DNA of 64,000 nucleotides from a virus (IMGVR_UViG_3300005937_000010:8089-72088); one strand, 5' to 3'; positions 1-64,000 are shown, counted from the first letter of the stretch. Program-made: numbers and translations. Notes: generated from the letters alone by a model not told the origin.

Positions 1-192
1 AGGCTTGGCAGCGGTCGTGAACGCGCCTGACGCCTGCTTCGTACCAGCATCGAACTCTGCCATGTTCGTGGAAGCGATCTTGGCAACTGTCCAGCCGTCA
101 GCCCTGGTTGCCGCCGTCTGCGCCGCGCCGTCCACGAGCGCGCCGAAGTTACCGTCTGCGCCCGATGCGACGTAGTATGTCTTGGTAGCCAC
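1..192 (-). CDS. Probable virion protein, N-terminal part only (runs off window)
   Basis: GTG at 192 overlapping upstream stop; open frame MATKTYYVASGADGNFG... to position 1. Confidence 0.55.
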   Translation of the reverse strand, partial: MATKTYYVASGADGNFGALVDGAAQTAATRADGWTVAKIASTNMAEFDAGTKQASGAFTTAAKP

Positions 193-482
193 TAGGCCAC
201 CTTCTCAAACTTGTACGTGCAGCTTGGCTTGTCCACGATGTGGCCGGGATGCGTCGGCCACACGTTGCATCCGTTGAGGTAGTACGGGTGCTGCCGGTCG
301 GTGCAGAGGTATTCGCCGTCGTGGAAGCCGAGGAGCGGACAAGGGACGTTCGGCTCTCCGGTGAACGGGTTGCCCGTCATGCAACACTCACCGCAGCGGC
401 AGCATTCCCCCGTGCGGATATACGCCTCGTCGCCGTGGGTGTAGAGTACAGCGGTCACGTCTTGGCACTCAGGGCGCTCCAT
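192..482 (-). CDS. CxxCxxCC (YkgJ-like) cysteine-cluster protein
   Basis: CCRCGECC plus later CPLL, LCT and GCNVWP cysteines; coupled to neighbouring genes. Confidence 0.6.
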   Translation of the reverse strand: MERPECQDVTAVLYTHGDEAYIRTGECCRCGECCMTGNPFTGEPNVPCPLLGFHDGEYLCTDRQHPYYLNGCNVWPTHPGHIVDKPSCTYKFEKVA

Positions 483-735
483 GTGGCACTATCCAGATCG
501 TGACTTGACGCCTCGCGTTCGGCGGCGGCGTGTGGATGACTTCCCACCGGATGTCGAACGGCGGCACCGGATCGGTGATGTCGATGGTGACGGTGCCTTG
601 CATGAGCATCATCCGCGAGAAGTAGTCGCGGATTTCGGAGTCCAGCGCCGTGCCGGGTGACAAGTCAGAGAACAGTTGCTCGACTTCACGCTCCGGCGTC
701 CAGACACGACGCAGGGCTTCGATGGGATTCTTCAC
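469..735 (-). CDS. Hypothetical protein
   Basis: 88-aa ORF in coupled operon. Confidence 0.6.
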   Translation of the reverse strand: MKNPIEALRRVWTPEREVEQLFSDLSPGTALDSEIRDYFSRMMLMQGTVTIDITDPVPPFDIRWEVIHTPPPNARRQVTIWIVPHGAP

Positions 736-1046
736 TTCACTTCCTCGTATAGCCGCTCGTACTCCGTGGGTGCCAAGCCGAACTGCACATCGCCGGTATC
801 GACGTAGTAGTAGCCAGGAGCGATGATCGCGCCGTTGTCGAGTGTGAGGTAGTCCTCGGTGGCGTTCTGGAACAACTCGAAAACCGGGGCTTCATTGTTG
901 GCCATGAACTCGTCGTGGTCGGCCTTGACCTTGGCAATGTACGCCTCGTGATCGGCCTGCATCTGTGCCTTGATCTTCTCCTGCTGCTTGGCAGTCTCCT
1001 TGTGCCGGATCTTCCCCTTCGGCATTCTCGGTGTCGGTGGCATCAC
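732..1046 (-). CDS. Hypothetical protein
   Basis: 104-aa ORF overlapping neighbours by 4 bp. Confidence 0.6.
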   Translation of the reverse strand: MMPPTPRMPKGKIRHKETAKQQEKIKAQMQADHEAYIAKVKADHDEFMANNEAPVFELFQNATEDYLTLDNGAIIAPGYYYVDTGDVQFGLAPTEYERLYEEVK

Positions 1047-1843
1047 AAAGCCCTCACTATCTTGTTGACGATGATCGTGGGTTGCGTGTTCAGGTGAGCA
1101 CCGCCACCGCCCACGGCATCGATGGCATGAGCATGCCCATTGCTCGACCCGCCCGTTGTCAGGTAGTGCGAGTGGTCGTAGTTCTCGCCTCCCAAGCTCG
1201 CGTAGCTGTACTCCGTACGAAACTTATTGCCGTAGAAGCCAAAGGGCGCTCCACCGCCGCAGTTGAAGGCCCAGTCGCCATCGCCAAGAATCCCGTCGCC
1301 AAAGTTGATGCCATTCACGGCAATGTGGTTGTGGCCGTAGTCGCCGTGAACGTGCGCGGCACTGCGTCCACCTGAGTTGCCACCATGCGCATGATCGGAC
1401 GAGATGGTGCCCGTTGCCCCGCCGTGCGAGTGCGATGGTATCTGTGCGGTTGCCAAGGTCACGCCTTCGCCTCCGACTGCCGCACCGAGAACCGTTCCGG
1501 CTGTCCCTGAGATAGCAGCGGTGATTCTGTTCGCTGCGGTGCCTCCCATGTCATCCTTGCCTGCCGAGACGCGCCCGCGCTTGTCAGCGATGTTGAACGT
1601 CGTGGAGCCGTCGCCGGAGCCGTGCGGGTAGCTCGCTGCCGCCGCAAGTGCTGCCAAGGCGCTGTATGTCGTTCGGCTCACGGCCTGCCCGTACTGGAGC
1701 AACGCCCAGCTTGGCAGCAAGGTGGGACTGTAATCCCATTCCAACGATGCCCCGACCGGAACGACGGTCAGCGGCGCTGTATCGCCAGCGGCAACACGCC
1801 AGAGCGGGATCCAGTCGGTCGTGGACGGCGACGGCGTAGGCAC
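1043..1843 (-). CDS. Tail-collar domain fibre protein, paralog 3
   Basis: GTG at 1843; WALLQYGQAVSRTTY...STTFNIADKRGR collar motif; HxH repeats. Confidence 0.8.
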   Translation of the reverse strand: MPTPSPSTTDWIPLWRVAAGDTAPLTVVPVGASLEWDYSPTLLPSWALLQYGQAVSRTTYSALAALAAAASYPHGSGDGSTTFNIADKRGRVSAGKDDMGGTAANRITAAISGTAGTVLGAAVGGEGVTLATAQIPSHSHGGATGTISSDHAHGGNSGGRSAAHVHGDYGHNHIAVNGINFGDGILGDGDWAFNCGGGAPFGFYGNKFRTEYSYASLGGENYDHSHYLTTGGSSNGHAHAIDAVGGGGAHLNTQPTIIVNKIVRAL

Positions 1844-2649
1844 TAGAGCGCCCTCACGATTCGGTTGACGATGATCGTCGGCTGCATGTTGAGATGCGCG
1901 CCACCACCGCCCTCTGCCGGGATCGAATGTGTGTGGTTGGCGCTCACACCACCAACACCTTGGTAGTGGTAGTGATCGACATTCTCGGTACCAGTCGTCA
2001 CATAGCCGGTGTTGGTGTAGAAGCGGTTGCCTTGCGTACCGAAGGGAGACTCGCATCCACCGCCTGAAAAGTCTTGGTTGCCATCACCAAGCCGCCCGTT
2101 GTTCCAGGGGATGTCCATGACGGCAGGATTGTGGTAGTGCCCACTGTCGCCGTGGCTGTGATCGCTACTCTCGGTGCCTGTCGTCCCACTGTGCGTGTGG
2201 TTGGCATTCTGCAACTGGGTAGCTCCGTTGTGCGAGTGAGACGGGATTGCAGCCGTTGCCAAGGTGACACCTTCGCTGCCAACCGCTGCACCGAGAACTG
2301 TGCCTGCCGTCCCGCAGATCGCGGCCGTAATCCGGCTGGCAGCCGTCCCACCCATGTCATCCTTCCCGGCTGCGATCCTGCCACGTTTGTCTGCCAAGTT
2401 GAACGTGGTGCTCCCATCACCCGATCCATGCGGGTAGCTCACGGCCGAAGCGAGCGCCGCGAGCGCGCTGTATGTCGTACGTGAGACTGCTTGGCCATAT
2501 TGGAGCAGTGCCCAGCTTGGTATCTGCGCTGAGCCGTAGTCCCACTCGATGGACATGCCAACGGGGATCGACACCAACTGCGAAGCATCTTGGATGCCAA
2601 GACCGTAGAGCGGCACCCAGTCAGTCGTGGAGGGATTTGGGCTTGGCAT
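1843..2649 (-). CDS. Tail-collar domain fibre protein, paralog 2
   Basis: Same collar motif (TTFNLADKRGR) and HxH repeats. Confidence 0.8.
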   Translation of the reverse strand: MPSPNPSTTDWVPLYGLGIQDASQLVSIPVGMSIEWDYGSAQIPSWALLQYGQAVSRTTYSALAALASAVSYPHGSGDGSTTFNLADKRGRIAAGKDDMGGTAASRITAAICGTAGTVLGAAVGSEGVTLATAAIPSHSHNGATQLQNANHTHSGTTGTESSDHSHGDSGHYHNPAVMDIPWNNGRLGDGNQDFSGGGCESPFGTQGNRFYTNTGYVTTGTENVDHYHYQGVGGVSANHTHSIPAEGGGGAHLNMQPTIIVNRIVRAL

Positions 2650-3443
2650 CAGAGTGCCCTCACGACTTTGTTGACGATGATGGTGGGCTGCACATTCAGA
2701 TGTGCGCCTCCTCCACCTTCGGCACCGATCCCGTGGTTGTGGTTGGCACTTATGCCAGGCAGGTTCACACCGTGAACATGCGCAGCGCTGCGTCCACCGG
2801 CATTCATGTAGCCCCAGTGCGTCCAGAACGAGTTTCCGTCCGTTCCGAAGTACGCACCGCCGCCTGCCGAGAGAGCAGTGTTGCCGTCACCAAGAGAGCC
2901 ATCATCCCAGCCGACGCCCGTGACCGCTGGCCGGTGATAGTGGCCAGGATCGCCGTGAGTGTGATCGGCGCTACGGCCATTCCCTTGACCGGAATGCGTG
3001 TGATCGGCCGACTCTCCACCCGTTGCACCGCCGTGAGAGTGAGACGGGATCTGTGAGGTTGCCAAGGTTACACCTTCGCTACCACACGCTGCACCAAGCA
3101 CAGCGCCACTTGCTCCGGCAATCACAGCCGTGAGTCTGTTCGCATACGTGCCGCCCATGTTGTCTTTCCCTACAGAGACACGACCTCGCTTGTCTGCCAA
3201 GTTGAAAGTCGTTGAGCCGTCACCCGCTCCGTGTGGATACCCTGATCCGGCTGCCAAGATGTGAAGGCGAGAGTACGTCGTCCGCGACACTGCCTGGCCG
3301 TACTGCAAGAGCGCCCAACTTGGTAGTTGCGCCGAACCGTAGTCCCACTCCATCGACGCACCGATGGGGATTACCTGCGGTGGCGTGTCACTGAGATTCC
3401 AGATCGGAACCCAGTCAGTAGTTGCAGGGCTAGGACTTGGCAC
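2649..3443 (-). CDS. Tail-collar domain fibre protein, paralog 1
   Basis: Same collar motif and HxH repeats. Confidence 0.8.
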   Translation of the reverse strand: MPSPSPATTDWVPIWNLSDTPPQVIPIGASMEWDYGSAQLPSWALLQYGQAVSRTTYSRLHILAAGSGYPHGAGDGSTTFNLADKRGRVSVGKDNMGGTYANRLTAVIAGASGAVLGAACGSEGVTLATSQIPSHSHGGATGGESADHTHSGQGNGRSADHTHGDPGHYHRPAVTGVGWDDGSLGDGNTALSAGGGAYFGTDGNSFWTHWGYMNAGGRSAAHVHGVNLPGISANHNHGIGAEGGGGAHLNVQPTIIVNKVVRAL

Positions 3444-5537
3444 TCATCCCTCCGCGAAGTATGAGACACAGGTGAGCGAAACCCAGTTGCCCGCCGAGAC
3501 GCCTTGAATCTGCAAGATGCCGCTACCGTCGAGACGCAGCATGTCAGCGGTGAAAGTGCCGCTCATCGCGCCACCGAAAATCAGCGTACGGCCGCTTGCC
3601 GGACGATATCCAACAGGCAACGTGGCTATCGTCACGCTAGGCCCACCGGAAGTGATAAGCCCTTGCATCTGCACCATGCCGTTCGCCAGTTTGCGGTACT
3701 GCCCCGGCCCATACGGAGCGCTGTAATGTGCCGCACCACCTGTCAGCGTCAAGTTCGTCCAGCCTGTATCCGCTGTGACAAGTCCAGGAATATCGGGAGC
3801 CGTGAGTGCCGCCCATGCTGGCGCTCCGCTAACGCCTTTCAAGAACTGGCCGTTGACAACACTTGGCAGGAGAGGCCAATCCGTCGGTACGGGCGCAGCG
3901 CTCGTCGGCCGCACGCACATGTACGCCACGTTGTTGTAGATCACGATGTCGCCGTCCGTGTACGGCGTGTTGGCAGGGTAATCGCCGTTGTAGACAAGAT
4001 CGGCTCCAGCAACCTGCCAAGTTCCATCATCACGCAGGAACTTGGTACCGTCTCGCGTCCCTGAGCCTAGAGACGCAGGAAGCACACGCCCAACTGCCTC
4101 AAATGTGCCATCCGTCTTGAGCGCACTGGCACCTGAGCGGTAGAGCGTCGTGTCACGAGTAACGCTACCACTCCCCCACTCCATCGTCCCATTGCCAAGA
4201 ATCCTGAACCGATCAACGGTATCGCTGTTCAGACCACCGGAAAAGATCGCGGCTGTCGGCGTCCCTGTGGGGCGATAGCTGAATATCCCTAGAGCAACAA
4301 GGAACCCGTCATCCGTCGCAAGAAGATCGGCGGCTGCGCGATACAAGCTTGTGTCCAGTGCCGTGCCAAAGTAGAGCCTGCCGTCAGTCCAGAGCGCGAT
4401 TTGTTGAGCAGCGGCCTCCATCGACACAATGCCTCCCTTGGCATAGATAGCATCATCCGTGCCAAGAACGTCGGCTGCACGTCGATATACGTTCGTATCG
4501 CCTGCCGAGCCGAAAATGAGCTTCTGCCCTGCGTTGAGAAGATCGAGAATCAATCCTGATCTTGTCAGCCTGGAAGTAACAGCGGCAGCTTCGTCCGAGT
4601 AGAACTGCAAACCGTCTAGCCCCGACTGAGTATAAATCTCCCAATCGGAAATCGTGTTACGTGCCAAGGTCGAATACATCGCTATTCCTGCACCGCCTGC
4701 TCCAGCACCGACTTGATTGACGATGTACGGCCAGTTGGTAGAGCCGCCGACAAGGACGGTCGATCCAGTCACCGGGTCGTTCACTCTGAACCAGGGAGCA
4801 ACTTCGACCGTCTGATTGCCTGCGCGATACATGTATACGTCCGGCGCAGTCGCGCCACCCGGCCCCCATTCGTGCCTGCCACTGCCAAGTATGCGGAAGG
4901 CAGGCTGCGCATCGCCTGCCAAGAGCTTGTTGGTAAGGATGCGCGTGGCCGCGACGATGACACCATCGAGCGGGACGTAGTTCATCGCCGGTAGCTGCGC
5001 GGTCGGGACTAGCCCACTCGCGTCCAGGGATGCGTACCCGTTCACAGCGCCCTTGGCACTGATCGCCTGTTTCTCCGCTGCAAGCTCTGCGATGGCAGCC
5101 TGCACGGTCGTCGCAGCCACGTCACCCGTAGCCGTACTGCTGATCGCGGTCGCCGCATGTGCTCCTGCGGCCTGGCCTGTGTGAGCGTCTAGCTCAGCCT
5201 GAGTAGCCACGTCCGCCGCAACCTTGGCAGCCGTGACTCCTCCGGCCTTGATCTGCAACGAGTCTCCGACGATTTCCAGTGTCACGCCATCGACGTTGAC
5301 ACTGAGCACGTTCGCAGACACACCGATCCCGTTCCCGGCCACGGAAGCTGCCAAGCCAGGACTGGGAAAAGTACCGCTGAGCACGCCACCGGCTGCATCG
5401 CCGTCCATCACCGCCGAGGCAACATCCGCCTTGGCAGTATCCGACTTGTTGGAGCCGTCAGCGTTGTGAGCGGCGAGCAGCCATGTCTCCAGTTGATCCT
5501 TCCACGGCTTGGTACCCAGTGCAGGAAGGCTTGGCAT
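3444..5537 (-). CDS. Fibre/adhesin-like virion protein
   Basis: 697 aa, Gly/Ala/Thr-rich, internal DTxLYRxAAxxLxTDD-type repeats, fibre-like C-terminus. Confidence 0.7.
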   Translation of the reverse strand: MPSLPALGTKPWKDQLETWLLAAHNADGSNKSDTAKADVASAVMDGDAAGGVLSGTFPSPGLAASVAGNGIGVSANVLSVNVDGVTLEIVGDSLQIKAGGVTAAKVAADVATQAELDAHTGQAAGAHAATAISSTATGDVAATTVQAAIAELAAEKQAISAKGAVNGYASLDASGLVPTAQLPAMNYVPLDGVIVAATRILTNKLLAGDAQPAFRILGSGRHEWGPGGATAPDVYMYRAGNQTVEVAPWFRVNDPVTGSTVLVGGSTNWPYIVNQVGAGAGGAGIAMYSTLARNTISDWEIYTQSGLDGLQFYSDEAAAVTSRLTRSGLILDLLNAGQKLIFGSAGDTNVYRRAADVLGTDDAIYAKGGIVSMEAAAQQIALWTDGRLYFGTALDTSLYRAAADLLATDDGFLVALGIFSYRPTGTPTAAIFSGGLNSDTVDRFRILGNGTMEWGSGSVTRDTTLYRSGASALKTDGTFEAVGRVLPASLGSGTRDGTKFLRDDGTWQVAGADLVYNGDYPANTPYTDGDIVIYNNVAYMCVRPTSAAPVPTDWPLLPSVVNGQFLKGVSGAPAWAALTAPDIPGLVTADTGWTNLTLTGGAAHYSAPYGPGQYRKLANGMVQMQGLITSGGPSVTIATLPVGYRPASGRTLIFGGAMSGTFTADMLRLDGSGILQIQGVSAGNWVSLTCVSYFAEG

Positions 5538-5941
5538 CAGGCGATGGAGTAGATCCCGGACGGGTCGATCTGGATGGTCACGTTCGATCCGTTCGGGGTG
5601 AACGCAATCGACGGTGACGAGTCGATCCAGGCGATCAGCGGAGCCGCCGCGTCGGAGGCGTTGTACTTATAGAGGCCGACTGCTTCGACGGTCGCACCCG
5701 TGACGCTGTTGATCGTCGGGTCGGCCGCGTCGAACGTGCCGCCCGTCGTCGTCTTGGATGCCAAGCCCGCCGCCATCCGTGCGATGATCCCGCCCGCCGT
5801 CCAGTTGGAGACGAACTGGTCGGCTGCGTTGTACGTCTCGGCACCCGTGTCGATCAGAGCGAAGCGGATGTCGTCCGTCAGGTGTGCGATGGTGCCGTCG
5901 AGAATCGCCTTGGCACCCAGTGGATAGAGAACGTTGGCCAT
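5537..5941 (-). CDS. Virion structural protein (MANxLY...IxFALID type)
   Basis: ATG at 5941 with GGAGGG; recognisable phage structural-type N-terminus. Confidence 0.6.
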   Translation of the reverse strand: MANVLYPLGAKAILDGTIAHLTDDIRFALIDTGAETYNAADQFVSNWTAGGIIARMAAGLASKTTTGGTFDAADPTINSVTGATVEAVGLYKYNASDAAAPLIAWIDSSPSIAFTPNGSNVTIQIDPSGIYSIA

Positions 5942-5942
5942 G

Positions 5943-6344
5943 TCATCCCTCCGATACCGTGCCGTCGGGAGCAATGCTCCACGTCTCAGTAACCCACTGC
6001 TTGCCAGTCATCACGTCGTTCTTGTCAGGCCCGTGACTGACAACCGAGTCTTCCGGCCCGTCCTCCACGTACATCGTGGAGATGACGATGTTGCCCTCCT
6101 CGTCCTTCGTCCAGGAGAACGTCGCACCACGAAGCGGAAGGCCATCGTCGTCCAGCCCGTCGTTGTCCGTGGCCGCGCCGGAGTCGGTACGCACCTGATT
6201 GATGAGCAGCTCGATGGCGTTGATCTGCTCGTCTGTCTCGTCGTGCTCGTAACGCCACCCCGTAGCTTGGCTGACAGCCTGCGTCTCCCCCTGCCCCAAG
6301 CCAGGATTGGGGGATCGGAAGATTTGGTTCTCTGCCATTGGCAT
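5943..6344 (-). CDS. Hypothetical head-associated protein
   Basis: Acidic ORF directly after capsid gene, AAGGA RBS. Confidence 0.6.
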   Translation of the reverse strand: MPMAENQIFRSPNPGLGQGETQAVSQATGWRYEHDETDEQINAIELLINQVRTDSGAATDNDGLDDDGLPLRGATFSWTKDEEGNIVISTMYVEDGPEDSVVSHGPDKNDVMTGKQWVTETWSIAPDGTVSEG

Positions 6345-6361
6345 CCTTTCTACCCGCCTTG

Positions 6362-6388
6362 GCAGGCTGGCTCTCGCGGCCAGCCTGT
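6362..6388 (-). terminator. Stem-loop after major capsid gene
   Basis: CAGGCTGGC-N7-GCCAGCCTG just downstream of the stop at 6399, flanked by two CTTGGCA copies. Confidence 0.55.
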
Positions 6389-6398
6389 CTTGGCAGGT

Positions 6399-7505
6399 TT
6401 ACGGCAGCGTGATCTTCTGCACGCTGTTGTTGAGGTCGGCGTACACGCCACGCCGCGAGCGAGCTACCTGCTGGCCCTCCACGAGCCGGGAGATGTCCGG
6501 CCCGCCAAGGTCGATGCGCAGGTCGTGATGGACAAGCTCCTTGAGCCTCCGCTGCGGGAAGATCAGGTAGCAGGTACCCGTCGTCACGCCGGGGTACGTG
6601 AACACGTCGGAGCCACGGTTGATCGTCTCTCCGTCGTAGTACACGATGGTGTTGATCGGGACGTTGGCGAGCGGGTTGCCCTGCGCGTCCCTGACCGGCG
6701 TCAGGAGCGCCTCCTCGATCTGGAAGCGGTTTGTCTCGGATGCCAAGAGCACCGTGCCCGTCCGACGCGGGTTCGCGTTCACCGTCGCCTTGTAGGCGTT
6801 CTGGAACGTGATGTGCGTCTTCTCGGAGACGGTCGTGCCCGTCGTGTCGGCTGCCGTGGCGTTGGCACCCGTGAAGGTGCCGCCGACGATGATGCCAAGG
6901 TGCAGATGGTTCAGGAGCGCATTGTACGCGCGGCCGAACGCCTGGTTGTTCAACTCGATGGAGTACGTGCGGTCGAACTCGATCATGTCCTCCGTCCACT
7001 CAAAGCCAGCCGCGTACGTCTGGATGAGTCCGACAGAGGGCACGCCCTTCTCCAGCGTGCCGAACTGTACTTCGCCGCCTTCAAACTTCTGGAGGAAGAC
7101 GACGTTCGCCTGGAGCGTGTACTCATCGACTTGGTACACGCCACCGGGGAAGCCGTTGGCTGGTGCGATGCGCTGGTAGATCGGGCCGTACAGAAGCGGG
7201 ATGTCTGCCAAGCCGAAGGCCACGTCGATCCTGACCTTCTCCAGCAACGCCATCTGCCCCTGCGCGGTGTCGATCATCTCGCGGATGATCGGCTTGGCAG
7301 GATCCCGCCGTGCGGCCGGGAACGGGAAGTAGTCGAGTCCGCCGTCCGGGTGGATTGCGCCCGCCAGCATCTCACCGATGAGGAGGTTCCGCTGGTTGCG
7401 CACCCCCTTGTCGATGGCCGCGTGAAGCTCCGTCCTGACAAGCTCCGTGCTGACTTCGCGCCAGTACGGATTGAACTTGAACTGCGGATGTGCCACCGTG
7501 CTCAT
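6399..7505 (-). CDS. Major capsid protein
   Basis: 368 aa from MSTVAHP with GGAGG RBS; follows scaffold and decoration genes; HK97-like segments. Confidence 0.75.
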   Translation of the reverse strand: MSTVAHPQFKFNPYWREVSTELVRTELHAAIDKGVRNQRNLLIGEMLAGAIHPDGGLDYFPFPAARRDPAKPIIREMIDTAQGQMALLEKVRIDVAFGLADIPLLYGPIYQRIAPANGFPGGVYQVDEYTLQANVVFLQKFEGGEVQFGTLEKGVPSVGLIQTYAAGFEWTEDMIEFDRTYSIELNNQAFGRAYNALLNHLHLGIIVGGTFTGANATAADTTGTTVSEKTHITFQNAYKATVNANPRRTGTVLLASETNRFQIEEALLTPVRDAQGNPLANVPINTIVYYDGETINRGSDVFTYPGVTTGTCYLIFPQRRLKELVHHDLRIDLGGPDISRLVEGQQVARSRRGVYADLNNSVQKITLP

Positions 7506-7522
7506 ACTTGGTACCTCCTCTC

Positions 7523-7924: not shown

Positions 7925-7940
7925 GTCTTGTCACCCCCTC

Positions 7941-9982: not shown

Positions 9983-9986
9983 CTTG

Positions 9987-10459: not shown

Positions 10460-10460
10460 C

Positions 10461-27701: not shown

Positions 27702-28643
27702 CTAGCGCCGTGCCTTGGCAGCGGCCTTGCCCTTACCCTTGACCGCTGTCGCCCGCGTCCGCGTGGCCGGAGCCTTGCGCGAGGCCGCAGGCTTGCCCTT
27801 CGGAGCCGCTGTGCGGGCCTGTGCGGGCTTGCGAGTCGCAGGGGCAGCCTTGCCCCTGGCCGGAGCGGGCTTGGCCGCAGCGGGCTTCACAGCGCGCCGC
27901 GTACGCGTCGTCTTCGGCCGGACGGCCGCGCGAGCCTCGCGCCTGCGGATGTCGTTCGGCTTGGTGCTCGTGCCGTACGCTGCCCGCTCGCCCGACTCGT
28001 GCTGGCCGGTGGCCTTCACGAAGTCCAGGGCCACGCGCCCGATGAGCCAGATGACCATGCGGTCGGCCGCGTGCTTGTCCTTGTCCGGGTACCAGCGCGT
28101 GGCGTGCCGCTTGACCTCCGCGAAGACCTTGGCCTTGTCACCCCGGTGCTTGCGCAGGCTGTCCATGACGATTCCGCGCTTGCTCGCGGAGCCGCCTTTC
28201 CAGTCCGCCGTCCAGTCGATGGCGCTGTTGTCGATGCGCACCGCGTAGCCTTCCGCCGCCTGGCCGCGCGTGCTCGTGCGCTTGGCAGCCGGAGCCGCCT
28301 TCGGAGCCGCCTTGCGCGCGACCGGCTTCGTCGTGGTGGCCTTGCCCTTGCCCTTCGCGGGCGCGACCGTGCGCGTGGTGGGCTTGGCAGCGGGCTTCGC
28401 CGGAACGGCCTTGCCCTTCGCCGGAGCGGCGGGCTTGCCCTTGACGACGGTCGTGGCTGCCGCCTTGCCCTTCGCTCCGTTGCGCCCGTTGGCGCTCGTG
28501 GCAGTCTTGCCCTTCGCGGGCTTGCTCGTGCGCGTCTGTGCCTGCTCCACGAGCTTGCGCAGCGTGGCGGGCGGGATCTTGCGGTAGTCCTCGATTCCCG
28601 CCTGCTTGGCCTTGGCCCACAGCGTAATCATGTCCTTGTCCAT
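27702..28643 (-). CDS. Histone-H1-like basic DNA-binding protein
   Basis: AKP/KGK-rich arms flank a ~100-aa globular core; short helical N-terminal domain; GGAGG RBS. Confidence 0.75.
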   Translation of the reverse strand: MDKDMITLWAKAKQAGIEDYRKIPPATLRKLVEQAQTRTSKPAKGKTATSANGRNGAKGKAAATTVVKGKPAAPAKGKAVPAKPAAKPTTRTVAPAKGKGKATTTKPVARKAAPKAAPAAKRTSTRGQAAEGYAVRIDNSAIDWTADWKGGSASKRGIVMDSLRKHRGDKAKVFAEVKRHATRWYPDKDKHAADRMVIWLIGRVALDFVKATGQHESGERAAYGTSTKPNDIRRREARAAVRPKTTRTRRAVKPAAAKPAPARGKAAPATRKPAQARTAAPKGKPAASRKAPATRTRATAVKGKGKAAAKARR

Positions 28644-28680: not shown

Positions 28681-28737
28681 AAGGTAGCAAGGCTTGGCAA
28701 GGCTTGTCAAGGTCTTGTCACGAGGACTTGCTTGGCA
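28681..28737 (-). promoter_or_regulatory. Promoter of H1-like gene overlaid by four TG(C/A)CAAG sites
   Basis: TTGACA (28705-28710)-18-TACCTT (28681-28686); motif copies at 28693, 28703, 28714, 28731. Confidence 0.65.
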
Positions 28738-29116
28738 AGTCCCGGAACGTCACCACGAGCGTGCCTTGATTGTGCGGGTGCTGGCCTGCCGGATCAAGGT
28801 ACACGAGCTTCGCGGAGACGACGGCCAACACTCCGGCGTCCAGCTTCGGCGCGAGGACTTCCGCGACCTCGCGCGGCAGGTAGCCAAGCTGCTTGCCCTC
28901 GTACAGACGGCTTGGCAGGTAGACGGCCACGGCGTTCTCATCGTACGCATTCTCCGGCTCGCGCTCCAGGCGGATCCCGGAGATGCCCTTCGCGGCAGCC
29001 GCCGCGAGGATGGCGCGATTCTCCTTCGTCCACCGGAAGCGCAAACCGATCACAGTCAGTTCGTGCTCCCACGTCTTCGGCTTGGACAGCTTGGCACTTT
29101 GGGTCTTTCCTGGCAT
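28718..29116 (-). CDS. HIRAN-domain protein
   Basis: VIGLRF, LEREPENAYDENAVAV, LGYLPR motifs. Confidence 0.85.
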   Translation of the reverse strand: MPGKTQSAKLSKPKTWEHELTVIGLRFRWTKENRAILAAAAAKGISGIRLEREPENAYDENAVAVYLPSRLYEGKQLGYLPREVAEVLAPKLDAGVLAVVSAKLVYLDPAGQHPHNQGTLVVTFRDLPSKSS

Positions 29117-44103: not shown

Positions 44104-44223
44104 CTACTTCTCCTCGTCGCCGTTGTCGTCGTCCGGCTCCGGCTCTGTCGGCTCCGGCTCCGGCTCTGGCGCTGTTGGTGTCGGTGTCTCTGCCACGTTC
44201 CCTCCTTTCGACTTGGTAGGCAT
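44104..44223 (-). CDS. Tiny acidic Pro/Glu-rich peptide
   Basis: EPEPEPTEPEPDDD; fills the HU-DnaE gap. Confidence 0.35.
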   Translation of the reverse strand: MPTKSKGGNVAETPTPTAPEPEPEPTEPEPDDDNGDEEK

Positions 44224-44627
44224 CAGGCTGCGGCCTTTCGCTTGGCCCTCGGCTTACCCGCCAACTGCTCGTGAAGCTCCTGCCCGACGTTGGTGCGCAG
44301 GCTCGGGAACTTGGCACTGAGCGACGGCGACTTCTTGATCTTGACCATGAACTTGTCAGGCTCATCGGCCCGGAGCGTCTTGGGTGGCTCATCGGGCTTG
44401 AAGGGGTTGCGGATCTGCGTACCCTTCTTCCGTCCCGCCTTGACCACCGGCTCAAAGGAACACAGGCCGGTGAGATTGACCTTGTACCCCTGGATGATGC
44501 AGTCCGTCACTTCGTCCTTCAACGCCGTGAGGAACTTTCTGATCTGCGACTCTGGCGTGCCAGGGAGCCGCAAACCAATCTCGTGGATCAGATCCCCTTC
44601 GTTCAGTGAGATTGGCCCCTTAGCCAT
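44223..44627 (-). CDS. HU/IHF-like DNA-binding protein
   Basis: KVNLTGLCSFE...RKKGTQIRNPF...VKIK. Confidence 0.8.
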   Translation of the reverse strand: MAKGPISLNEGDLIHEIGLRLPGTPESQIRKFLTALKDEVTDCIIQGYKVNLTGLCSFEPVVKAGRKKGTQIRNPFKPDEPPKTLRADEPDKFMVKIKKSPSLSAKFPSLRTNVGQELHEQLAGKPRAKRKAAA

Positions 44628-44656
44628 CTTGTCACTCTCGCTTCGTTTCGGGATGA

Positions 44657-44697
44657 TTCCGGGGCGGTAACGAGCGCCAACTCCCACCGCCCCGGAA
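44657..44697 (-). terminator. 12-bp stem-loop between SSB and HU genes
   Basis: TTCCGGGGCGGT...ACCGCCCCGGAA. Confidence 0.5.
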
Positions 44698-57658: not shown

Positions 57659-58046
57659 CCACTCCCAGGGTTGTCGTTGTCGTCAGAGCGTCGGCCGGAT
57701 CCTCGCTGTCTTCGATCATCGCATACGTGATCGTGATGTTCACCTTGCGAGAATCGTCTTCGTCTATCGAGACTGACACGTCATGGACGATGATGTCTGT
57801 CATCGGCTCCAACGCCTCACGCACGGTAAGCTCAGCCGTCTGCTGCGCTCGCGTGTCCGGCATCCGCAGCATGTCGTAGAGACGACTGCCAAGCGACGGA
57901 TCAACGTCCCACATTCCGTAGTGGACACGAAGGCGCACACGAATCCGCTGTTCAACCACGCCCTGCCCGGTGCGCACACTCAAGTCCGAGTTGGGCGAAA
58001 CGATCAGGTCGCCCGTGTTGTAGTCGATGGCGAGGTCGGTTGCCAA
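57651..58046 (-). CDS. Baseplate gp25/gpW-like protein
   Basis: QRIRVRL...GMW...LGSRL...VREALEP. Confidence 0.75.
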   Translation of the reverse strand: MATDLAIDYNTGDLIVSPNSDLSVRTGQGVVEQRIRVRLRVHYGMWDVDPSLGSRLYDMLRMPDTRAQQTAELTVREALEPMTDIIVHDVSVSIDEDDSRKVNITITYAMIEDSEDPADALTTTTTLGVGE

Positions 58047-58047
58047 G

Positions 58048-58464
58048 CTATACCTCCCCTAGCCAGTAGTCCTTGCTCTGGATCACGCCGACGCACATCG
58101 GGAAGCGGAAGGAACCACGAGGGTTGAGCACGCAGACCATCTGCCCAACGCTTGGCACGATGACCGTCGTGTGGAAGGCGTCGTTCTTCTGTGTCTTGTC
58201 ACCACGGTGCTCCTTGCGTGTGACCCATGGGCTACCCGGTGACTCGTTGCCGAGAGGCACCGAGTCCATGTACTCAAAGCTGTGGCCGAAGTAGACGAGT
58301 GGGATTGCCAAGTCACCAAACTCCTTCAACCACACGAGCTTCTTGACGGCATCGCGCTTGACGACTTTGCCGAACGTGACTTCGCGTGGCTTGGCCTCGC
58401 GACGGATCGCATCGTAGATGGCGTTCCAGATACCGCTTGGCAGTTCGGTGAATGTCATACTCAC
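58048..58464 (-). CDS. Baseplate spike/gpV-like protein
   Basis: FGKVV and PSVGQMV OB-like motifs; position after hub. Confidence 0.55.
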   Translation of the reverse strand: MSMTFTELPSGIWNAIYDAIRREAKPREVTFGKVVKRDAVKKLVWLKEFGDLAIPLVYFGHSFEYMDSVPLGNESPGSPWVTRKEHRGDKTQKNDAFHTTVIVPSVGQMVCVLNPRGSFRFPMCVGVIQSKDYWLGEV

Positions 58465-61400
58465 GATGTCGGTTTCACTCCCCAGTAGGCACAGATGCCT
58501 CGGTAGATCGCCTTGCCAAGCTCATTGCGCTTGGTATCGAGATATGTCCCATCGCTGGAACGACCGCACTCCAGAATGACGGCTGCCTTGGCATTCGGGA
58601 CGTGATTCACGTTGTCCGGCGCTGCACGTAGATCGCTTCCCCAGGCGTAGTAGCCCCATCCAGTCGCACCGGCTGGCGTGCCACCGAAGCCGGTGTTGTC
58701 CGTCAGACGGGATGGTGCGCCCTCGATCTTGAGAATCTCGGCAGCGATGGCGTCAGCAAGCTTGGCAGATTCCGTAGACATAGCTTGCGGTCGCCCGTCC
58801 GTCGCCCCCCTCGTATAGCCAAAGAAGAATCCGCTTCCGGCGGTACCCCGATCATAGTGGATCGAGACGAACAACGAGCCGTTGTAGTCGATGTCGTCTG
58901 CGGCAGCCGCCGTAGCCCCCGCGCTCGCGTCCCAGGAAGTTCCCTTGGCAGGATAGAAGCCAGGCATGGCATCGAACAGAGCAAGAACACGATCACGCAC
59001 TTGGACGGTGAACTCCGCTTCGCCAACGGCCCCGCTCTGAGTCTCATGGCCGTACGGCTGATCGTCGTGTGTGCCCTTGTCATGTCCAGCCTGGATCATC
59101 AAATAGTTGCCCACTGTGGGGAAGTCGTCTCCAGGATTCGGGTTGGCCCTACCAGCCGTCGTCCCGGCCGGATCGCGGGTGACAACCGCGTCCTTCCAGT
59201 CCACGAGACGGCGAGCGCCGATGTAGTGGCTGTCGTAGTAGCCGTTGTTGATGCTGCTGACCTTGACCACATCGCCGGTCGATGGATCGTGAACCATCCT
59301 CCCATCGCCCATGTATAGGCCAACGTGCTGCGGCAGGTTGTCACCGTGATCGAAGAACACGAGGTCGCCAATGAGCAGAGCATCCTTGGCAGGAGCAGGG
59401 AAGCGACCTTTCTCGTAGAGCGTGAATGTCGTCTCTCCGTGGCTCTTGCCGGACACTGGCTCGTCCAGCTTGGCACGCAGATCGGCAGATGCCGCCGCAT
59501 ATGCAGCAGTGACGAAGCTGGAACAGTCGTAATACGGGCCTGTGCCTCCCCACTCGTACGGATCGCCGCGCCGACGCAAAGCGAAGTTGATCGCCTTCTT
59601 GATGACATCCGGCGTGTTGGCAGGAGCCTCGTACGTCACCCCGTCGATGGTCGTCTTCGTCTGTGTGCCGACCGGCAACGTCTGTGAGGCCGACACCACC
59701 GTCTGCGCAACCGAGAGCCAGCGCTGATCTACCAAGCCCATCACGGCGTTGGCGTACTTGGCATTGGCGTCTGGATCCCGGCTCCCGTAATAGCGCTCGA
59801 TCCCGATGCGAATGGTCTTGGGATCATTCGGGTTAGCGGCTGGCGGATTGTCCAGCTTGTCAGCCAACGCACGCGCAGCCGCCCGGATGTTAGAGCGAGG
59901 ATTCCAGCGGCCACCCTCAAGCTCATCGTGCTTGGCAGCCCCATTCCAACCGTACTCGTCCGCCCACTGCTTGTAACCACGACTGACAAGCTGCATCGGC
60001 CCGACTGCCGTATCCGAGTCGGGATAGCGAGGACTGTCCGGGTTCTCCTTGTTGTTGGAGAACGTCAGCGAATACTTGTGACGAACATCGACACCTGACG
60101 GCTTGATCGGGCCAGCATGCGCACCCTCCGGCGTCTCGGCCTGCACCCCGATGGGATTGTCCCTCCAGTCGCCCGTGTTCTGCTTGAACTGGTCAAAGGA
60201 CTTCCAGATCACATGGTTGATCGCGCCCTCTGTCGTGCCACGGACGTTGGTGAAGTTCGACTCGTGCTCACAGATCGCCAAGAGGACTGCCAAGAAGGTG
60301 GCGTAGTCCCAACCCTTGTCCGATCCCCATTCAGTTGCCGCCTGCTGGAAGGCATCGGCCCAAGGGAGCGGACGGCCGTCCGGCAGCGTGGCCTGCGAGA
60401 GAATGGCTTGCATAGAGCTTGGCACTTGTCTGTCGGCAGGCTCGTTCGGCTGGTTGATCTTGGGAGGATCGGGCACACGCTTGCTGACGGCAAAGCCCTT
60501 CTCGCGCAGACGCACGATCTGCGTGAAGCCGTCCGGGCCACCGATCCGTGACACGCCAACGACGAAGTAGAGGCCGTTCAGGTGCATGAGCGGGGGAGGC
60601 AAGTGCAAGCGTGCCATCTGATTCTGCGCGTAGACCTGGCCGTGGTCGTGAACGCCAAGCTCGATCTGATACGCGCCGACGATGGACTCGTAGACTTCCT
60701 CGTCCGCGTCCTCTCTGGCCTCGATGTTCGACTTGGCAGTGCTCGACGTGATGATCGAGAGCGGCTTGCGCAGCCAGTTCTTGATCGTCGGGTCACGCGA
60801 CTTGGCATAGAACGGGGTGCCGGTCTTCTGATCCTCCCCGAACACCCACACTTCCGCCTTGCGCTGCTTGCTCGTATGCACGGAGACGACTTCCGGCATA
60901 TCCCACACGCCGCGCGTGTCACCCTTGGCAGCTTGGCCGAAGAAGTACGAAGCCTTGTCACTGTGGTTGAGTTGAGTAACGTGAAGCTGCCCTAGTGGGC
61001 CAGTCCAGATGAACATGTCACGCATGCGGGCGATGCGGTACCAAAGCTCCCACTCCGTCTCCCCGCCGTTGGAGATGAGAGTGCCAATCTCGCGCATCCC
61101 GTGGATGGTCGTGTTCGTCAGGCCGATGGCGTGTGCCCGATCCCGGATGAACTCGCGCGGCCGGACGTGCTTCCATTTCCCTGGCGCAACGTCGGAGTCA
61201 ACTGCCAAGGCCGACATGTCGCGCCCGGACAGGCTGTGGACGAAATCCCCCGTGTTGAACGAGATGTCGTCCACGATTCCCGTGAAGATCGGACGCGCCT
61301 TGCCCGACGGGCCTGCCAAGTAGATCGTGGCGCGCGTCTCCACGTCGCGGTCGGTCAGGTACATGAACTCTGCGTGCGGATCACCGAGGGTGAGACTGAA

Positions 61401-61523
61401 CGAATCGACATCCCTGTCGAGCGCCGTCTCGGTCTGAAAGCTTGTCAGTTGACGCACAGGAAACTGGCGCGTGGCTCCACGTCCGAGAGTCGTCTGCAAC
61501 ATGGCGTAGGCAGAACGATGCAT
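58461..61523 (-). CDS. Baseplate hub fused to SLT-like, NlpC/P60 and Amidase_3 domains
   Basis: AICEHESNF...GPMQL; PYEWGG...DCSSF...HVGLY; IQAGHD...SIHYD...ILECG. Confidence 0.8.
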   Translation of the reverse strand: MHRSAYAMLQTTLGRGATRQFPVRQLTSFQTETALDRDVDSFSLTLGDPHAEFMYLTDRDVETRATIYLAGPSGKARPIFTGIVDDISFNTGDFVHSLSGRDMSALAVDSDVAPGKWKHVRPREFIRDRAHAIGLTNTTIHGMREIGTLISNGGETEWELWYRIARMRDMFIWTGPLGQLHVTQLNHSDKASYFFGQAAKGDTRGVWDMPEVVSVHTSKQRKAEVWVFGEDQKTGTPFYAKSRDPTIKNWLRKPLSIITSSTAKSNIEAREDADEEVYESIVGAYQIELGVHDHGQVYAQNQMARLHLPPPLMHLNGLYFVVGVSRIGGPDGFTQIVRLREKGFAVSKRVPDPPKINQPNEPADRQVPSSMQAILSQATLPDGRPLPWADAFQQAATEWGSDKGWDYATFLAVLLAICEHESNFTNVRGTTEGAINHVIWKSFDQFKQNTGDWRDNPIGVQAETPEGAHAGPIKPSGVDVRHKYSLTFSNNKENPDSPRYPDSDTAVGPMQLVSRGYKQWADEYGWNGAAKHDELEGGRWNPRSNIRAAARALADKLDNPPAANPNDPKTIRIGIERYYGSRDPDANAKYANAVMGLVDQRWLSVAQTVVSASQTLPVGTQTKTTIDGVTYEAPANTPDVIKKAINFALRRRGDPYEWGGTGPYYDCSSFVTAAYAAASADLRAKLDEPVSGKSHGETTFTLYEKGRFPAPAKDALLIGDLVFFDHGDNLPQHVGLYMGDGRMVHDPSTGDVVKVSSINNGYYDSHYIGARRLVDWKDAVVTRDPAGTTAGRANPNPGDDFPTVGNYLMIQAGHDKGTHDDQPYGHETQSGAVGEAEFTVQVRDRVLALFDAMPGFYPAKGTSWDASAGATAAAADDIDYNGSLFVSIHYDRGTAGSGFFFGYTRGATDGRPQAMSTESAKLADAIAAEILKIEGAPSRLTDNTGFGGTPAGATGWGYYAWGSDLRAAPDNVNHVPNAKAAVILECGRSSDGTYLDTKRNELGKAIYRGICAYWGVKPTS

Positions 61524-62302
61524 TACCAGTAAAGTCTCGTCCCGAGAGGGATGTGATAGTCAGGCACCTTGGCAGTAACGATGCCCTTCTTACGAAACCA
61601 CTTCTCGTTCTTGTCGTAGATCACTTGCCACTTCGCAGCACTGCCAAGCTTCCAGGCTGCGATCTTGCGCAGCGTGTTGTGCTTGGAATCGACCTTGAGG
61701 CTGCGAGCGCCAGGCTGTGCTCTCCCGGTACCGGGCGCACGGGGAACCTCCAACTGTGGCACGTCATCGGACTTCCCGGCCCCCTTGGTAAGACCGATGC
61801 GCACGAACTCGATTTCGTACGTGAGGTCTTGGCTGTTGTCCTCCATCGCGTGGCTGAACCTGGCGCGGGCTACCACCACACGCTGCGCGTAGGCCAGGAT
61901 GTGCGGGACGTACAGAATCTTGCCAAGCTTGGGTGTCTTCTCGTAGACGATCTGCCGGAGCGCACGCAGGTTGTCCGGGCCGCTCAATCCGGGGAAGTTC
62001 CCGGACATCAAGAAGCGCTCCTCGCCAAGATGTGTCACGTCAACGGCTACGGCATTGTCTCCAATGAAGCGATGAATGCCAAGCTGTGGCTCGATGGTGA
62101 GGTCGAACGACTCCAGGCCAAGCGGCCAGATGAACGCAGGGCCGTTGAACTGAGAGCTTGTCGCCAGCCACGGCCGGTAGAAGTGGACGCCGGGGTTCGT
62201 GATGTAGCTGGCAGTGTCGTTCTTGGCACCCCGGTCGAGGTACGGATTCCACGGTGCCTTGCTGTTGGCCTTGGAAAGCTTGAATGGGAAGCTCTGTGGC
62301 AT
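61523..62302 (-). CDS. Tail-tube initiator-like protein with C-terminal LysM-like domain
   Basis: NTLRKIAAWKLGSAAKWQVIYDKN...IPLGTRL. Confidence 0.65.
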   Translation of the reverse strand: MPQSFPFKLSKANSKAPWNPYLDRGAKNDTASYITNPGVHFYRPWLATSSQFNGPAFIWPLGLESFDLTIEPQLGIHRFIGDNAVAVDVTHLGEERFLMSGNFPGLSGPDNLRALRQIVYEKTPKLGKILYVPHILAYAQRVVVARARFSHAMEDNSQDLTYEIEFVRIGLTKGAGKSDDVPQLEVPRAPGTGRAQPGARSLKVDSKHNTLRKIAAWKLGSAAKWQVIYDKNEKWFRKKGIVTAKVPDYHIPLGTRLYW

Positions 62303-64000
62303 CAGGGTGTCCTACTCTGAGATGTGGTTGCTGCGCCTCCCTGGGCGCGTGACTTGCCCTTGTACGTCGGCGCAGGCTTGGCAACCGTGAACTTCATGGG
62401 CAGTCCCTTCTTCGTCTCCACCGTGATCGTACGGCCCTGCGCGTCCACGAGCCTGATCGTGAACTGTTGATGCACGTCAGCCGCCGTCATGCGGATAGCC
62501 ACCGGATCGCCAATCCCGCGCTTGTGGTAAGCGTTCTCGATGTCCTTGGTGACGCCCCAACTCAGATGGCCCTTCTCCATGAGCAGCTTGGTAAGCGACT
62601 CACTCGGAGCAATCTTCTGCTGCCAATCGACCGGCAGCGCTCCACCCTTGCCAACCCGGCTGCGGTAGAAGTCGTAGCCTGCGGCGACGAACGGAGCCGC
62701 CACGGCAGTCGCAGCCGCCGTCGATGCCAAGCCGCCTGCCGGGATGATCGGCGGAACTCGCTTGGCCCAACGCTTGAAGAAGCCTGGCGTGCCAGGAGTC
62801 GTCGGAGCGTTCGGCCCCATGCCACCGGACGGCCCGCCGACCATCCAGGAAACCGGGTGGATGATGACCCAAAACGGATTGGCGCGCGTACCGTCTGTCG
62901 CGGCTCCTGCCAAGACGTTCTGCGCCGACTCCGTGGCAAGTAGCCCGCCGACAAGCTCCTGTCCCGGTGATCCTCCAAGCCTGCGATTGCGCAGCGCCTT
63001 CAAGATCCGGGCACCCTTGTAGACTGCCAAACCACCGAACAGGCTGCCAAGTGCAACCTGCGTGGCCGTGCGATGCTCCGTGACGGCATCCGCGAGCGCG
63101 CCGACCGGAGGAGCCACGACATGCTCAAGCGGCCACTGGATCCCGCGTGCCAAGCCGAGGTTGAGATTGGCCCGCTGCTGATTGAACCTTGTCAGGGTGT
63201 TCTGCCTCTGGAACTCCTCCTCACGAGCACGCACGGCGTTGGCCTTGGTTGCAGCCTGTTGCGCTCTGAGGTAGTCCTTGAGTCCCTTGACGCCATCCTG
63301 TCCAAGAAGGGCGATAAACTGACGCACGGATTCCTGCCTGCCAAGCGCTTGATAGAGCAGCGTGCGGTTGATCCCGGTGGCCCCCGACGCCGCGATGGCT
63401 TCCTCGTCCGTCATCTCCTCGTTGAACAGGGCCGTTCGATTCCTGATCCGCGCGCCTCGCGGAGCGATGCGCTCCATCATCTGCAAGAGCACCTTCATTC
63501 CACCCATGCGTGCCAAGGCATTGGGATCACTTGGTAGCCCCATGGCTTGATACGCCTTGATCTGCTCCTTGGTCTGCGGGTGCAGCAACGAGCTACCAAG
63601 CAACTGCGCAATCCCGCGACCAAGGACTCCGGCCGAACCGCCCGCCTTACCTGCTTGGCCCCACACGGCGAATGCCTGCTCAGGTGTCATCCTGGCAGTT
63701 TGCGCAGCCTGCCCGATGCGCCCGATGTCACGAGCTACGTCGCGGCCAGTGACGTTCGGCGTCGAGGCCAGCATGTACGAGATGAGGTTGGCAACACGGT
63801 TTGTCTGTCGCCCGATGGTTCCCGGTCGGCGGGTCGCAATCTGCGGGTCGATCTGATTGACAAGCGACGCGATGCCACCTGCCAAGACCTGCGGATCGCC
63901 CGCTTCGGTGCCAAGCATGGCTCCCAGGCGGGCTACCTCGTCCACGAAACCCGTCATCGCCGCCATGCGCTGACCCTGCGGGACGTTGGAGAACGTGGAG
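62302..64000 (-). CDS. Tape measure protein, C-terminal part (start off window)
   Basis: Long Ala/Gly/Leu helical ORF still open at 64000; upstream of LysM and hub genes. Confidence 0.75.
   Translation of the reverse strand, partial: STFSNVPQGQRMAAMTGFVDEVARLGAMLGTEAGDPQVLAGGIASLVNQIDPQIATRRPGTIGRQTNRVANLISYMLASTPNVTGRDVARDIGRIGQAAQTARMTPEQAFAVWGQAGKAGGSAGVLGRGIAQLLGSSLLHPQTKEQIKAYQAMGLPSDPNALARMGGMKVLLQMMERIAPRGARIRNRTALFNEEMTDEEAIAASGATGINRTLLYQALGRQESVRQFIALLGQDGVKGLKDYLRAQQAATKANAVRAREEEFQRQNTLTRFNQQRANLNLGLARGIQWPLEHVVAPPVGALADAVTEHRTATQVALGSLFGGLAVYKGARILKALRNRRLGGSPGQELVGGLLATESAQNVLAGAATDGTRANPFWVIIHPVSWMVGGPSGGMGPNAPTTPGTPGFFKRWAKRVPPIIPAGGLASTAAATAVAAPFVAAGYDFYRSRVGKGGALPVDWQQKIAPSESLTKLLMEKGHLSWGVTKDIENAYHKRGIGDPVAIRMTAADVHQQFTIRLVDAQGRTITVETKKGLPMKFTVAKPAPTYKGKSRAQGGAATTSQSRTP

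Follow-up and report, generated by a model that had tools for sequence, protein, structure and literature searches.

Both orientations of a TGCCAAG-type word form one even lattice in the genome of an uncultured soil phage, with a candidate duplex-binding reader

We analyzed a 64,000-nucleotide stretch of viral DNA (IMGVR_UViG_3300005937_000010; here, referred to as the window), which spans positions 8089-72088 of a virus record that is complete at 72,088 bp. CheckV rates the record as 100% complete, it has terminal repeats of the circular-assembly type, and its source is an uncultured soil phage, a lytic-type tailed phage of ~72 kb. Throughout this genome, the heptamer TGCCAAG and its variants TGACAAG and TACCAAG occur in both orientations as one evenly spaced lattice. 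Selection keeps up the coverage of this lattice: a site is written where the encoded proteins permit it and where there is no other site within ~50 to 100 bp. Our preferred reading, to which we assign a probability of roughly 0.4, is that a reader encoded by the phage lineage and predicted to bind duplex DNA organizes or marks the phage DNA.

1..64000, both strands: genome-wide word lattice, running on through the other 8 kb of the genome; defined by counts, codon-preserving shuffles, and joint-lattice statistics

Counting both strands, we detected 315 copies of TGCCAAG in the window, compared to 8.8 ± 2.7 in dinucleotide-preserving shuffles (largest 18), which is a 36-fold enrichment. The complete genome holds 347 copies, 182 on the plus strand and 165 on the minus strand. 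TGACAAG (115 copies in the genome, 93 in the window) is enriched 14-fold, and TACCAAG (60 in the genome, 52 in the window) is enriched 23-fold. Considering the three words together, there are 522 sites per 72,088 bp, with gaps that average 138 bp. Control DNA from bacteria of many phyla (1.34 Mb) contains TGCCAAG at 0.16/kb compared to 4.81/kb in the phage, and densities of the latter kind are reached there only by low-complexity words of extreme-GC genomes. An earlier note, based on the sequence of the window alone, had reported ~30 copies of TGCCAAG in positions 1-6000, ~34 in positions 57800-64000, and ~300 in total, a strong excess over the ~8 expected. The counts in the two intervals are 32 and 34, respectively, and the observation as a whole is stronger than that note had it. 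Its impression that TGACAAG and TACCAAG are also enriched was correct, as was its statement that copies lie on both strands, in all frames, and in intergenic DNA, although the six frame classes are used unevenly (sense 115/24/10, antisense 85/57/8). Its GC content of ~65% needs revision, given that both the window and the complete genome have a GC content of 62%.

The word is specific at all seven positions, and there is strong tolerance only for A at position 3 (TGACAAG) or position 2 (TACCAAG). Discrimination between bases is strict, with A over T at position 5 by 347:3 and C over G at position 4 by 347:12. Among the remaining variants at position 3, TGGCAAG (47 copies) is weakly enriched, with half of its copies being by-products of the composite CTTGCCAAG, and TGTCAAG (17 copies) is the only one that is not enriched. 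The composites CTTGCCAAG (23 copies) and CTTGACAAG (8 copies), which together follow the pattern CTTG[C/A]CAAG, account for ~31 of 460 sites, or ~7%. Because all positions are specific, TGTCAAG is unenriched, and TGGCAAG is half composite, the word is asymmetric and is not a decayed palindrome. We rejected both a palindromic origin of the word and a dimer geometry of its sites; composites make up only that small share of sites, and no pair distance is preferred. The core retains weak flanking preferences in non-coding DNA, for G at position -3 and for C at both -1 and +1.

The minus strand carries nearly all genes. Gene calls come from our own GC3-based heuristic, and some of the short plus-strand calls are probably spurious. 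To separate the word from the demands of coding, we shuffled synonymous codons within each gene, which preserves every protein and the codon usage of each gene. The shuffled coding sequences contained 30.6 ± 4.8 copies of TGCCAAG, whereas the actual coding sequences contain 301; therefore, the excess outlasts control for codons and amino acids. This shuffle was a check named in the earlier note, and the enrichment persists through it. TGACAAG and TACCAAG respond to the procedure in the same way. Of the synonymous positions that would permit a word, 148 of 198 are filled for the sense orientation and 151 of 301 for the antisense orientation (~50 to 75%). Overall, 86% of the 522 sites fall inside genes, but copies of the word are less dense in coding DNA (4.6/kb) than in non-coding DNA (6.8 to 8.2/kb).

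The coding sequences pay for these sites. The word contains 39% of all TTG codons, 29% of CTT, 20% of GCA, 19% of CCA, and 22% of AAG, which agrees with the earlier claim that it forces rare codons. In addition, the dipeptides Ala-Lys and Asp-Lys are over-represented 1.3- to 1.9-fold and Glu-Lys is depleted, and this bias is seen only in genomes that use the word TGMCAAG (M is A or C). Selection thus extends to the proteins, with amino acid changes among the costs of the word. The shuffles and the density in non-coding DNA, together with the conservation of sites, their compensated turnover, and the neighbor-dependent use of synonymous positions described below, support the proposal of the earlier note that selection acts on the DNA itself.

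The 522 sites are spaced more evenly than expected by chance, with a coefficient of variation (CV) of 0.63 for the joint gaps. Gaps of <30 bp constitute 4% of the total compared to 19.5% expected, and no gap is longer than 598 bp, whereas a maximum of ~860 bp would be expected. When each strand is taken by itself, spacing is near random (CV 0.93 and 0.92), and a circular shift of one strand's sites raises the joint CV to 0.895 ± 0.037. Only 7 pairs of sites on opposite strands lie within 30 bp of each other, compared to 55.4 ± 6.4. To control for coding constraint, we used the protein-permitted positions that lack a site, and found that the use of potential sites depends on the distance to the nearest site: 4% are used at <15 bp, 34% at 30 to 50 bp, and 70 to 78% at >120 bp. 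By increasing distance, the corresponding values are 0.18/0.45/0.59/0.69 when the neighbor has the opposite orientation and 0.15/0.47/0.58/0.65 when it has the same orientation. Because neighbors in either orientation suppress equally, a site in either direction meets the local need. This indifference to orientation indicates a reader that works on duplex DNA; its reach would be some 50 to 100 bp, and it would be needed about once per 130 to 140 bp. Gap analysis revealed no preferred pair distance, including for inverted pairs, and there was no helical phasing of the sites (R 0.04 compared to 0.027 expected). We also detected no two-arm polarity of orientation, though orientation is locally non-random; this local bias may reflect amino acid composition, because one strand holds nearly all genes.

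These geometric data bear on the possibility that the word is read on a single strand by a tracking enzyme, either in the manner of Chi (by RecBCD, AddAB, or AdnAB) or as a start site for the Toprim primase on the lagging-strand template. Chi and primase words are short, asymmetric, and prone to drift between lineages, and the word described here shares all three properties. Its reverse complement ends in CA, like some primase sites; the phage has a DnaG-type primase and a DnaB helicase; and phages rich in Chi sites have been described (Zheng et al. 2025, PMC12315714). However, an enzyme of this kind would need coverage on each strand, and it is per strand that the CV is near random, with the two orientations interchangeable and two-arm polarity absent. 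The density of sites is 9 to 14 times that of Chi-rich phages, and the phage encodes its own recombination proteins (RecA-like, Cas4-like exonuclease, and RuvC-like resolvase). Moreover, the relative L038 lacks a Toprim primase at the syntenic place in the 23 kb of contig seen, yet a weak word is still there. We consider single-strand reading to be improbable. Among the four mechanisms offered in the earlier note, the binding lattice is therefore favored, because both orientations form one joint, evenly spaced lattice, and the Chi- or uptake-like signal is disfavored, because polarity is lacking, the orientations are interdependent, and the phage brings a recombination module of its own. A self-tag or a decoy may be the purpose that the lattice serves.

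Homologues of the large terminase subunit (TerL) and of DnaE revealed a large family of 60- to 75-kb phages in soil and peat metagenomes. The single DnaE protein used as a query in viral contigs gave no matches. Family members use related words, as follows (W is A or T, R is A or G).

Window phage, L031, L036, L040, and L041: TGMCAAG, enriched 30- to 40-fold
L032: TGMCAAW
L037: TGMCART
L039: TGACAWT, with 73 copies of TGACAAT compared to 1.3 expected
L003 group and L123: TGAAATC / TGAAATT
L033, L034, L038, and G001: TGAAAA, TGAAAW, or TGWAAT, enriched only 5- to 10-fold

Positions T1, G2, and A5 are constant across the words of the family, and the changes elsewhere are coherent and stepwise along the DnaE tree (TGMCAAG, TGMCAAW, TGACAWT, TGAAAW). 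A sister clade retains its own word over GC contents of 46 to 57%, which suggests that the word tracks the phage lineage rather than the host. We found the joint lattice, with a pitch of ~120 to 150 bp, in seven relatives, including users of other words such as L033. In one further member of the family as judged by TerL (L018, a short IMG/VR contig, TerL 55% identical, GC 65%), we saw no saturating word of the TG..A type in 5.3 kb, which may reflect either loss of the system in this lineage or the shortness of the contig.

Individual positions of the lattice are conserved only among close relatives. In a comparison to a relative with 80% identity, 40 of 67 sites in six genes are at the same aligned place, whereas the background identity of 7-mers is 24%. 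Of the 27 sites lost in this comparison, 18 are replaced within 50 bp, and the counts per gene are almost equal. At ≤63% DnaE identity, positional conservation of sites is absent. Given that positions turn over while counts hold, coverage is the conserved quantity.

This turnover also informs on whether a reader is required at all. Biased mutation or mismatch repair could turn near-words into the word, as proposed for the cyanobacterial palindrome HIP1; neighbors with one mismatch are somewhat enriched here, and a repair model has been put forward for cyanobacterial HIPs (PMC4390886). Such a process would be blind to neighboring sites, yet whether a site is used depends strongly on how near the closest other site lies, whichever way that neighbor points. 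Nor does it fit the regular spacing, the conservation of sites above background, the compensation of losses nearby, or the lack of a methyltransferase partner among the five families searched. We regard an origin from biased mutation alone as extremely unlikely.

A conserved host factor, such as sigma-70 region 4 or a nucleoid protein, would be another type of reader, with ~500 sites acting to recruit or titrate it. The reverse complement of the word, CTTGGCA/CTTGTCA, differs from the -35 hexamer TTGACA by one base, and of the TGNCAAG variants only TGTCAAG, which corresponds exactly to the -35 sequence, lacks enrichment. A conserved factor could also explain why the T-G-x-x-A core persists over phage GC contents of 46 to 66%. 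Set against this, the word shifts stepwise with phage phylogeny, and words of the sister clade, for example TGAAATC, agree with TTGACA at only three of six positions. In L039, TTGACAA itself is enriched; avoidance of the -35 sequence is therefore not general. On balance, we assign a low probability to a host factor.

We compared the lattice to known types of genome-wide words and found that it fits none of them, whether Chi sites, the DNA uptake sequences (DUS) and uptake signal sequences (USS) of transformable bacteria, highly iterated palindromes (HIPs), stoperators, or primase sites. We also searched the full-text literature for the word itself and for phages with over-represented words or with coating proteins, and found no account of such a system. 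A Chi hotspot is active in one orientation only. Phages enriched in Chi (LLS, P1, and lambdoid phages without a Rec module) carry ~1 site per 1.9 kb; 20 of 23 sites (~87%) share an orientation, and the sites cluster at one end. Their word is that of the host, and these phages have no recombination genes (PMC12315714). As in those phages, a short asymmetric word is the top oligomer here and is selected at the DNA level beyond codon usage. Unlike those phages, this genome has one site per 138 to 208 bp, the sites are even and orientation-blind, the word goes with the phage lineage, and RecA, an exonuclease, and a resolvase are encoded by the phage itself.

Cyanobacterial HIP1 and the alternate HIPs are palindromes of bacterial chromosomes that travel with a cognate methyltransferase (Elhai 2015, PMC4390886). 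They resemble the lattice in that a hyper-abundant word runs through genes and sister lineages have related words, but the word of the phage is asymmetric and the five methyltransferase families are absent. We know of no description of regular spacing among HIPs. The DUS of Neisseria and the USS of Pasteurellaceae serve natural transformation, are read by a protein on DNA, and occur at ~1 per kb, often paired in terminators. They share with the phage word its lineage-specific dialects and its presence on both strands and inside genes; they differ in that the lattice is in a phage genome, lacks inverted-pair geometry, and is 5 to 8 times as dense.

Stoperators, the sites of the L5 gp71 repressor in cluster A mycobacteriophages, are bound by a monomeric phage DNA-binding protein and have a consensus ending in TGTCAAG. 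They are 13 to 14 bp long and confined to short gaps between genes, with ~25 to 35 in a genome, all in one orientation relative to transcription. The likeness consists of asymmetric sites across a phage genome, a consensus tail resembling the word of this phage, and a likely actinobacterial host, which is a guess in the case of this phage. In contrast to stoperators, the lattice is built of a 7-bp word at 522 sites, 86% of them genic, in both orientations despite genes being mostly on one strand.

The asymmetry of the word is also compatible with a target for a DNA-modifying enzyme, an adenine methyltransferase or other enzyme supplied by phage or host, with the regular chemical mark being what matters (for example, as a self-mark guarding against a nuclease). 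Adenine methyltransferases of the Type IIG, Type III, and BREX classes typically recognize asymmetric words of 6 to 7 bp with an invariant adenine, and the shape of this word fits. A mark on the duplex would likewise be orientation-blind, in keeping with the joint lattice. Cyanobacterial HIPs track a methyltransferase (Elhai 2015, PMC4390886), and the relative L033, a TGAAAA user, encodes an MT-A70 methyltransferase (19606-20463). That relative also encodes a NADAR domain protein (14734-15216), and neither gene is present in the window phage. Six-frame searches of the complete phage genome with models for MT-A70 (PF05063), N6_N4_Mtase (PF01555), D12-class (PF02086), C5 (PF00145), and N6_Mtase (PF02384) enzymes found none of the five, whereas controls responded. 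Likewise, no base-modification or deazaguanine genes emerged when the non-structural proteins were scanned against Pfam, PHROG, and NCBIfam. Furthermore, an enzyme alone leaves the 36-fold enrichment and the even spacing unexplained. We judge the modification explanation to be unlikely.

A reader from the phage lineage that binds the duplex is the reading we therefore return to, and two proteins of the phage were considered for this role.

27702..28643, minus strand: H1-like protein, 313 aa, with a HeH/Rho_N-like head, a K/A/P-rich linker, a three-helix core of ~95 aa, and a K/A/P/R-rich tail
28693..28739, minus strand: tandem word array and candidate operator, with four physical sites at a pitch of ~10 to 11 bp over the -35 element and spacer
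44223..44687, minus strand: HU/IHF-type protein, 154 aa (Pfam Bac_DNA_binding 27.1 bits, cut-off 22.4; PHROG 379)

The H1-like protein is our best, though tentative, candidate for the reader, an assignment we hold at clearly less than even odds. Defined by the core, its family comprises 204 sequence clusters, all of one architecture, and is a hallmark of the phage family. Residues Q83 and H84 of the core do not vary, and T81, R89, G93, and R72 are almost as constant. The 313-aa protein has lysine-, alanine-, and proline-rich basic tails of the H1/Hc1-Hc2 type; among 57 family members, 7 match the Rho_N model and 4 match that of the chlamydial H1-like protein HC2. An AlphaFold2 model of the core is compact and consists of three helices (pLDDT 87.5), and, as modeled, this globular core has no recognizable winged helix. 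The H1 globular domain (GH1/GH5) is missing from the Foldseek and VIA-align matches listed, all of which fall below the reliable range. The alignment of the core used as a query in viral contigs confirmed nothing.

Abundant small basic proteins organize genomes elsewhere, for example phi29 p6, SPO1 TF1, linker histones, and chlamydial Hc1/Hc2; these have little or no sequence specificity and no dedicated word. The H1-like candidate resembles them in its lysine/alanine/proline-rich arms and in the HC2 matches, and the system differs from theirs in that this genome itself encodes regular, specific sites.

The promoter of the H1-like gene carries an unusual concentration of words. Under strict 7-mers, its array is the only tight tandem array in the genome, and the -35 element TTGACA is embedded in CTTGACAAG. 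Adjacent pairs of sites 7 to 16 bp apart are very rare, with five in this genome, four in L040, two in L041, and three in L039. The gap upstream of the H1-like gene holds two of five, one of four, one of two, and two of three of these pairs, respectively, though it constitutes only 0.2 to 1% of each sequence; three of these four genomes are fairly close kin. The array at the H1-like gene of L039 is made of L039's own word. That such rare pairs are found at this promoter fits autoregulation by titration.

The leader of the H1-like gene also has a separate feature. An element CCCGAA(A/C) lies just 5' of the Shine-Dalgarno sequence GGAGG at three places on the minus strand (16915-16935, 25115-25132, and 28649-28669), giving three strict matches compared to 0.17 expected, and it is also present in the H1-like gene leaders of G001, L039, and L040. 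Because the element is conserved in that leader in distant relatives, it may reflect translational or RNA-level control of early genes.

Several observations weigh against the H1-like protein or against a phage-encoded reader in general. The sequence of the H1-like core has no match in PDB, Pfam, NCBIfam, or a protein atlas, and Foldseek and VIA-align identified no reliable fold relative (best Z 6.1 at a root mean square deviation of 8 Å). Under loose hexamer words, the promoter gap is one of several top clusters rather than a unique one, and two genomes of the TGAAAT clade, G001 and L123, have no clear array at the H1-like promoter, only scattered words or near-words. The H1-like gene may simply be under the control of the actual reader. 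Because ~40% of the phage proteins are without annotation, another protein could fill this role, and an unrecognized DNA-modifying enzyme or a host factor may be responsible instead.

The HU-like protein is a second, weaker candidate for the reader or for an architectural partner. Its gene adjoins that of DnaE and has syntenic orthologues across the family; the Pfam score supports a Bac_DNA_binding fold, and the translation has an RNP motif in the beta arm. The true start is probably an internal ATG, giving ~134 aa. Across word types, the arms of the HU-like proteins differ by clade, as all proteins do, and are thus uninformative with respect to the word. The minor groove does not distinguish A:T from T:A. 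We infer from the strict discrimination of A from T and C from G that the word is read in the major groove, which points away from the minor-groove arms of an HU-like protein.

The remaining gene content is that of a tailed phage, including a gpA-type large terminase, a portal, Baseplate J, and a tail protein with NlpC/P60. Replication genes encode a PolIII alpha subunit, a DnaB-like helicase, a Toprim (DnaG-type) primase, and the HU-like protein; DUF932, a HIRAN protein, and a SNF2-type helicase are encoded as well. We saw neither a repressor module nor an integrase module in the phage genome. Among GenBank phages, there is no close relative at the DNA level, and TerL and DnaE reach only 24 to 29% identity. 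Three other features deserve mention.

44708-45985, minus strand: candidate T4 gp32-type single-strand-binding protein, 425 aa, in which a Cys-rich zinc motif and an extended acidic stretch are present (judged by eye)
49835-50176 and 52064-53005, minus strand: Rpf-type transglycosylase PF06737 and Amidase_2 lysin (domain matches)
33039-34028, minus strand: 329-aa protein matching a PHROG named 'DNA topoisomerase' (E 4e-37)

The putative gp32-like protein lies between the primase and the HU-like gene, a place that is kept across the phage family, and a Pfam search with it gave zero matches. Among the relatives, one DnaE (P0030, 1475 aa) bears intein-type domains. The replication module is variable within the family: the place in L038 without a Toprim primase is at 5850-8022, and L034 has a 667-aa primase (6214-8217) and a 604-aa RecA (14203-16017), about double the usual size. 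The Rpf-type transglycosylase, together with the Amidase_2 lysin and the NlpC/P60 tail protein, hints at an actinobacterial host, which is only a guess; PF06737 is also found in the relative L037. A search of GTDB genomes with the family DnaE alignment returned just cellular DnaE at ~30% identity and no host label.

In the 329-aa protein, a GDFDPSG segment recalls Toprim/Top6A-type domains, and there is no Pfam, NCBIfam, or PDB sequence match. We considered this protein as a poxvirus-type topoisomerase IB, which would be a site-specific duplex enzyme, and rejected the idea given that the PHROG match lacks support from those three databases. A compositional island at ~16000-28000 has a GC content of 0.655 to 0.703 compared to 0.60 to 0.63 elsewhere and contains a 1077-aa plus-strand open reading frame (18211-21444) without a Pfam or PHROG match; the word lattice crosses this island at normal density. 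In the interval between portal and scaffold (9653-10699 of the window), two small open reading frames of 109 and 45 aa were called, and these could encode internal head or DNA-condensing proteins.

How a reader from the phage lineage would use the lattice can be outlined from these data. TGCCAAG, TGACAAG, and TACCAAG would serve as a docking word, present as single sites once per ~130 to 140 bp and read on the duplex regardless of orientation. The reader would be a sequence-specific DNA-binding protein of the major groove that co-evolves with its sites and coats, organizes, or marks the phage DNA at regular intervals. The phage could thereby tell self from host DNA by sequence, the host being expected to have ~30 times fewer sites if bacterial controls (0.16/kb) stand in for it. 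If the H1-like protein is this reader, its three-helix core may dock on the word while the lysine/alanine/proline-rich arms cover flanking DNA, and the promoter array may shut off the H1-like gene once genomic sites are filled, amounting to autoregulation by titration. The result would be a sequence-anchored 'phage chromatin', in which an H1-like array with a pitch of ~130 bp forms on phage DNA only and provides a self-mark free of modification. Its purposes might include protection, compaction, or selective replication and packaging. We regard this fuller picture as possible but doubtful. Co-evolution of reader and word would then give each phage lineage a private DNA dialect.

The lattice illustrates how far a signal can bend a genome, to the point that a fifth of lysine codons and a third of two leucine codons go to the word and the use of dipeptides shifts, and the lineage-specific word provides a simple fingerprint for recognizing and sorting this family of uncultured soil phages in metagenomes. 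If our reading is correct, this would be, to our knowledge, the first bacterial virus that encodes a regular array of specific docking sites (one per ~130 bp), and its 'self' DNA would be marked through sequence instead of base modification. The stepwise pairs of reader and word would then offer a series for studying how DNA-recognition specificity evolves, as well as a source of orthogonal DNA tags.

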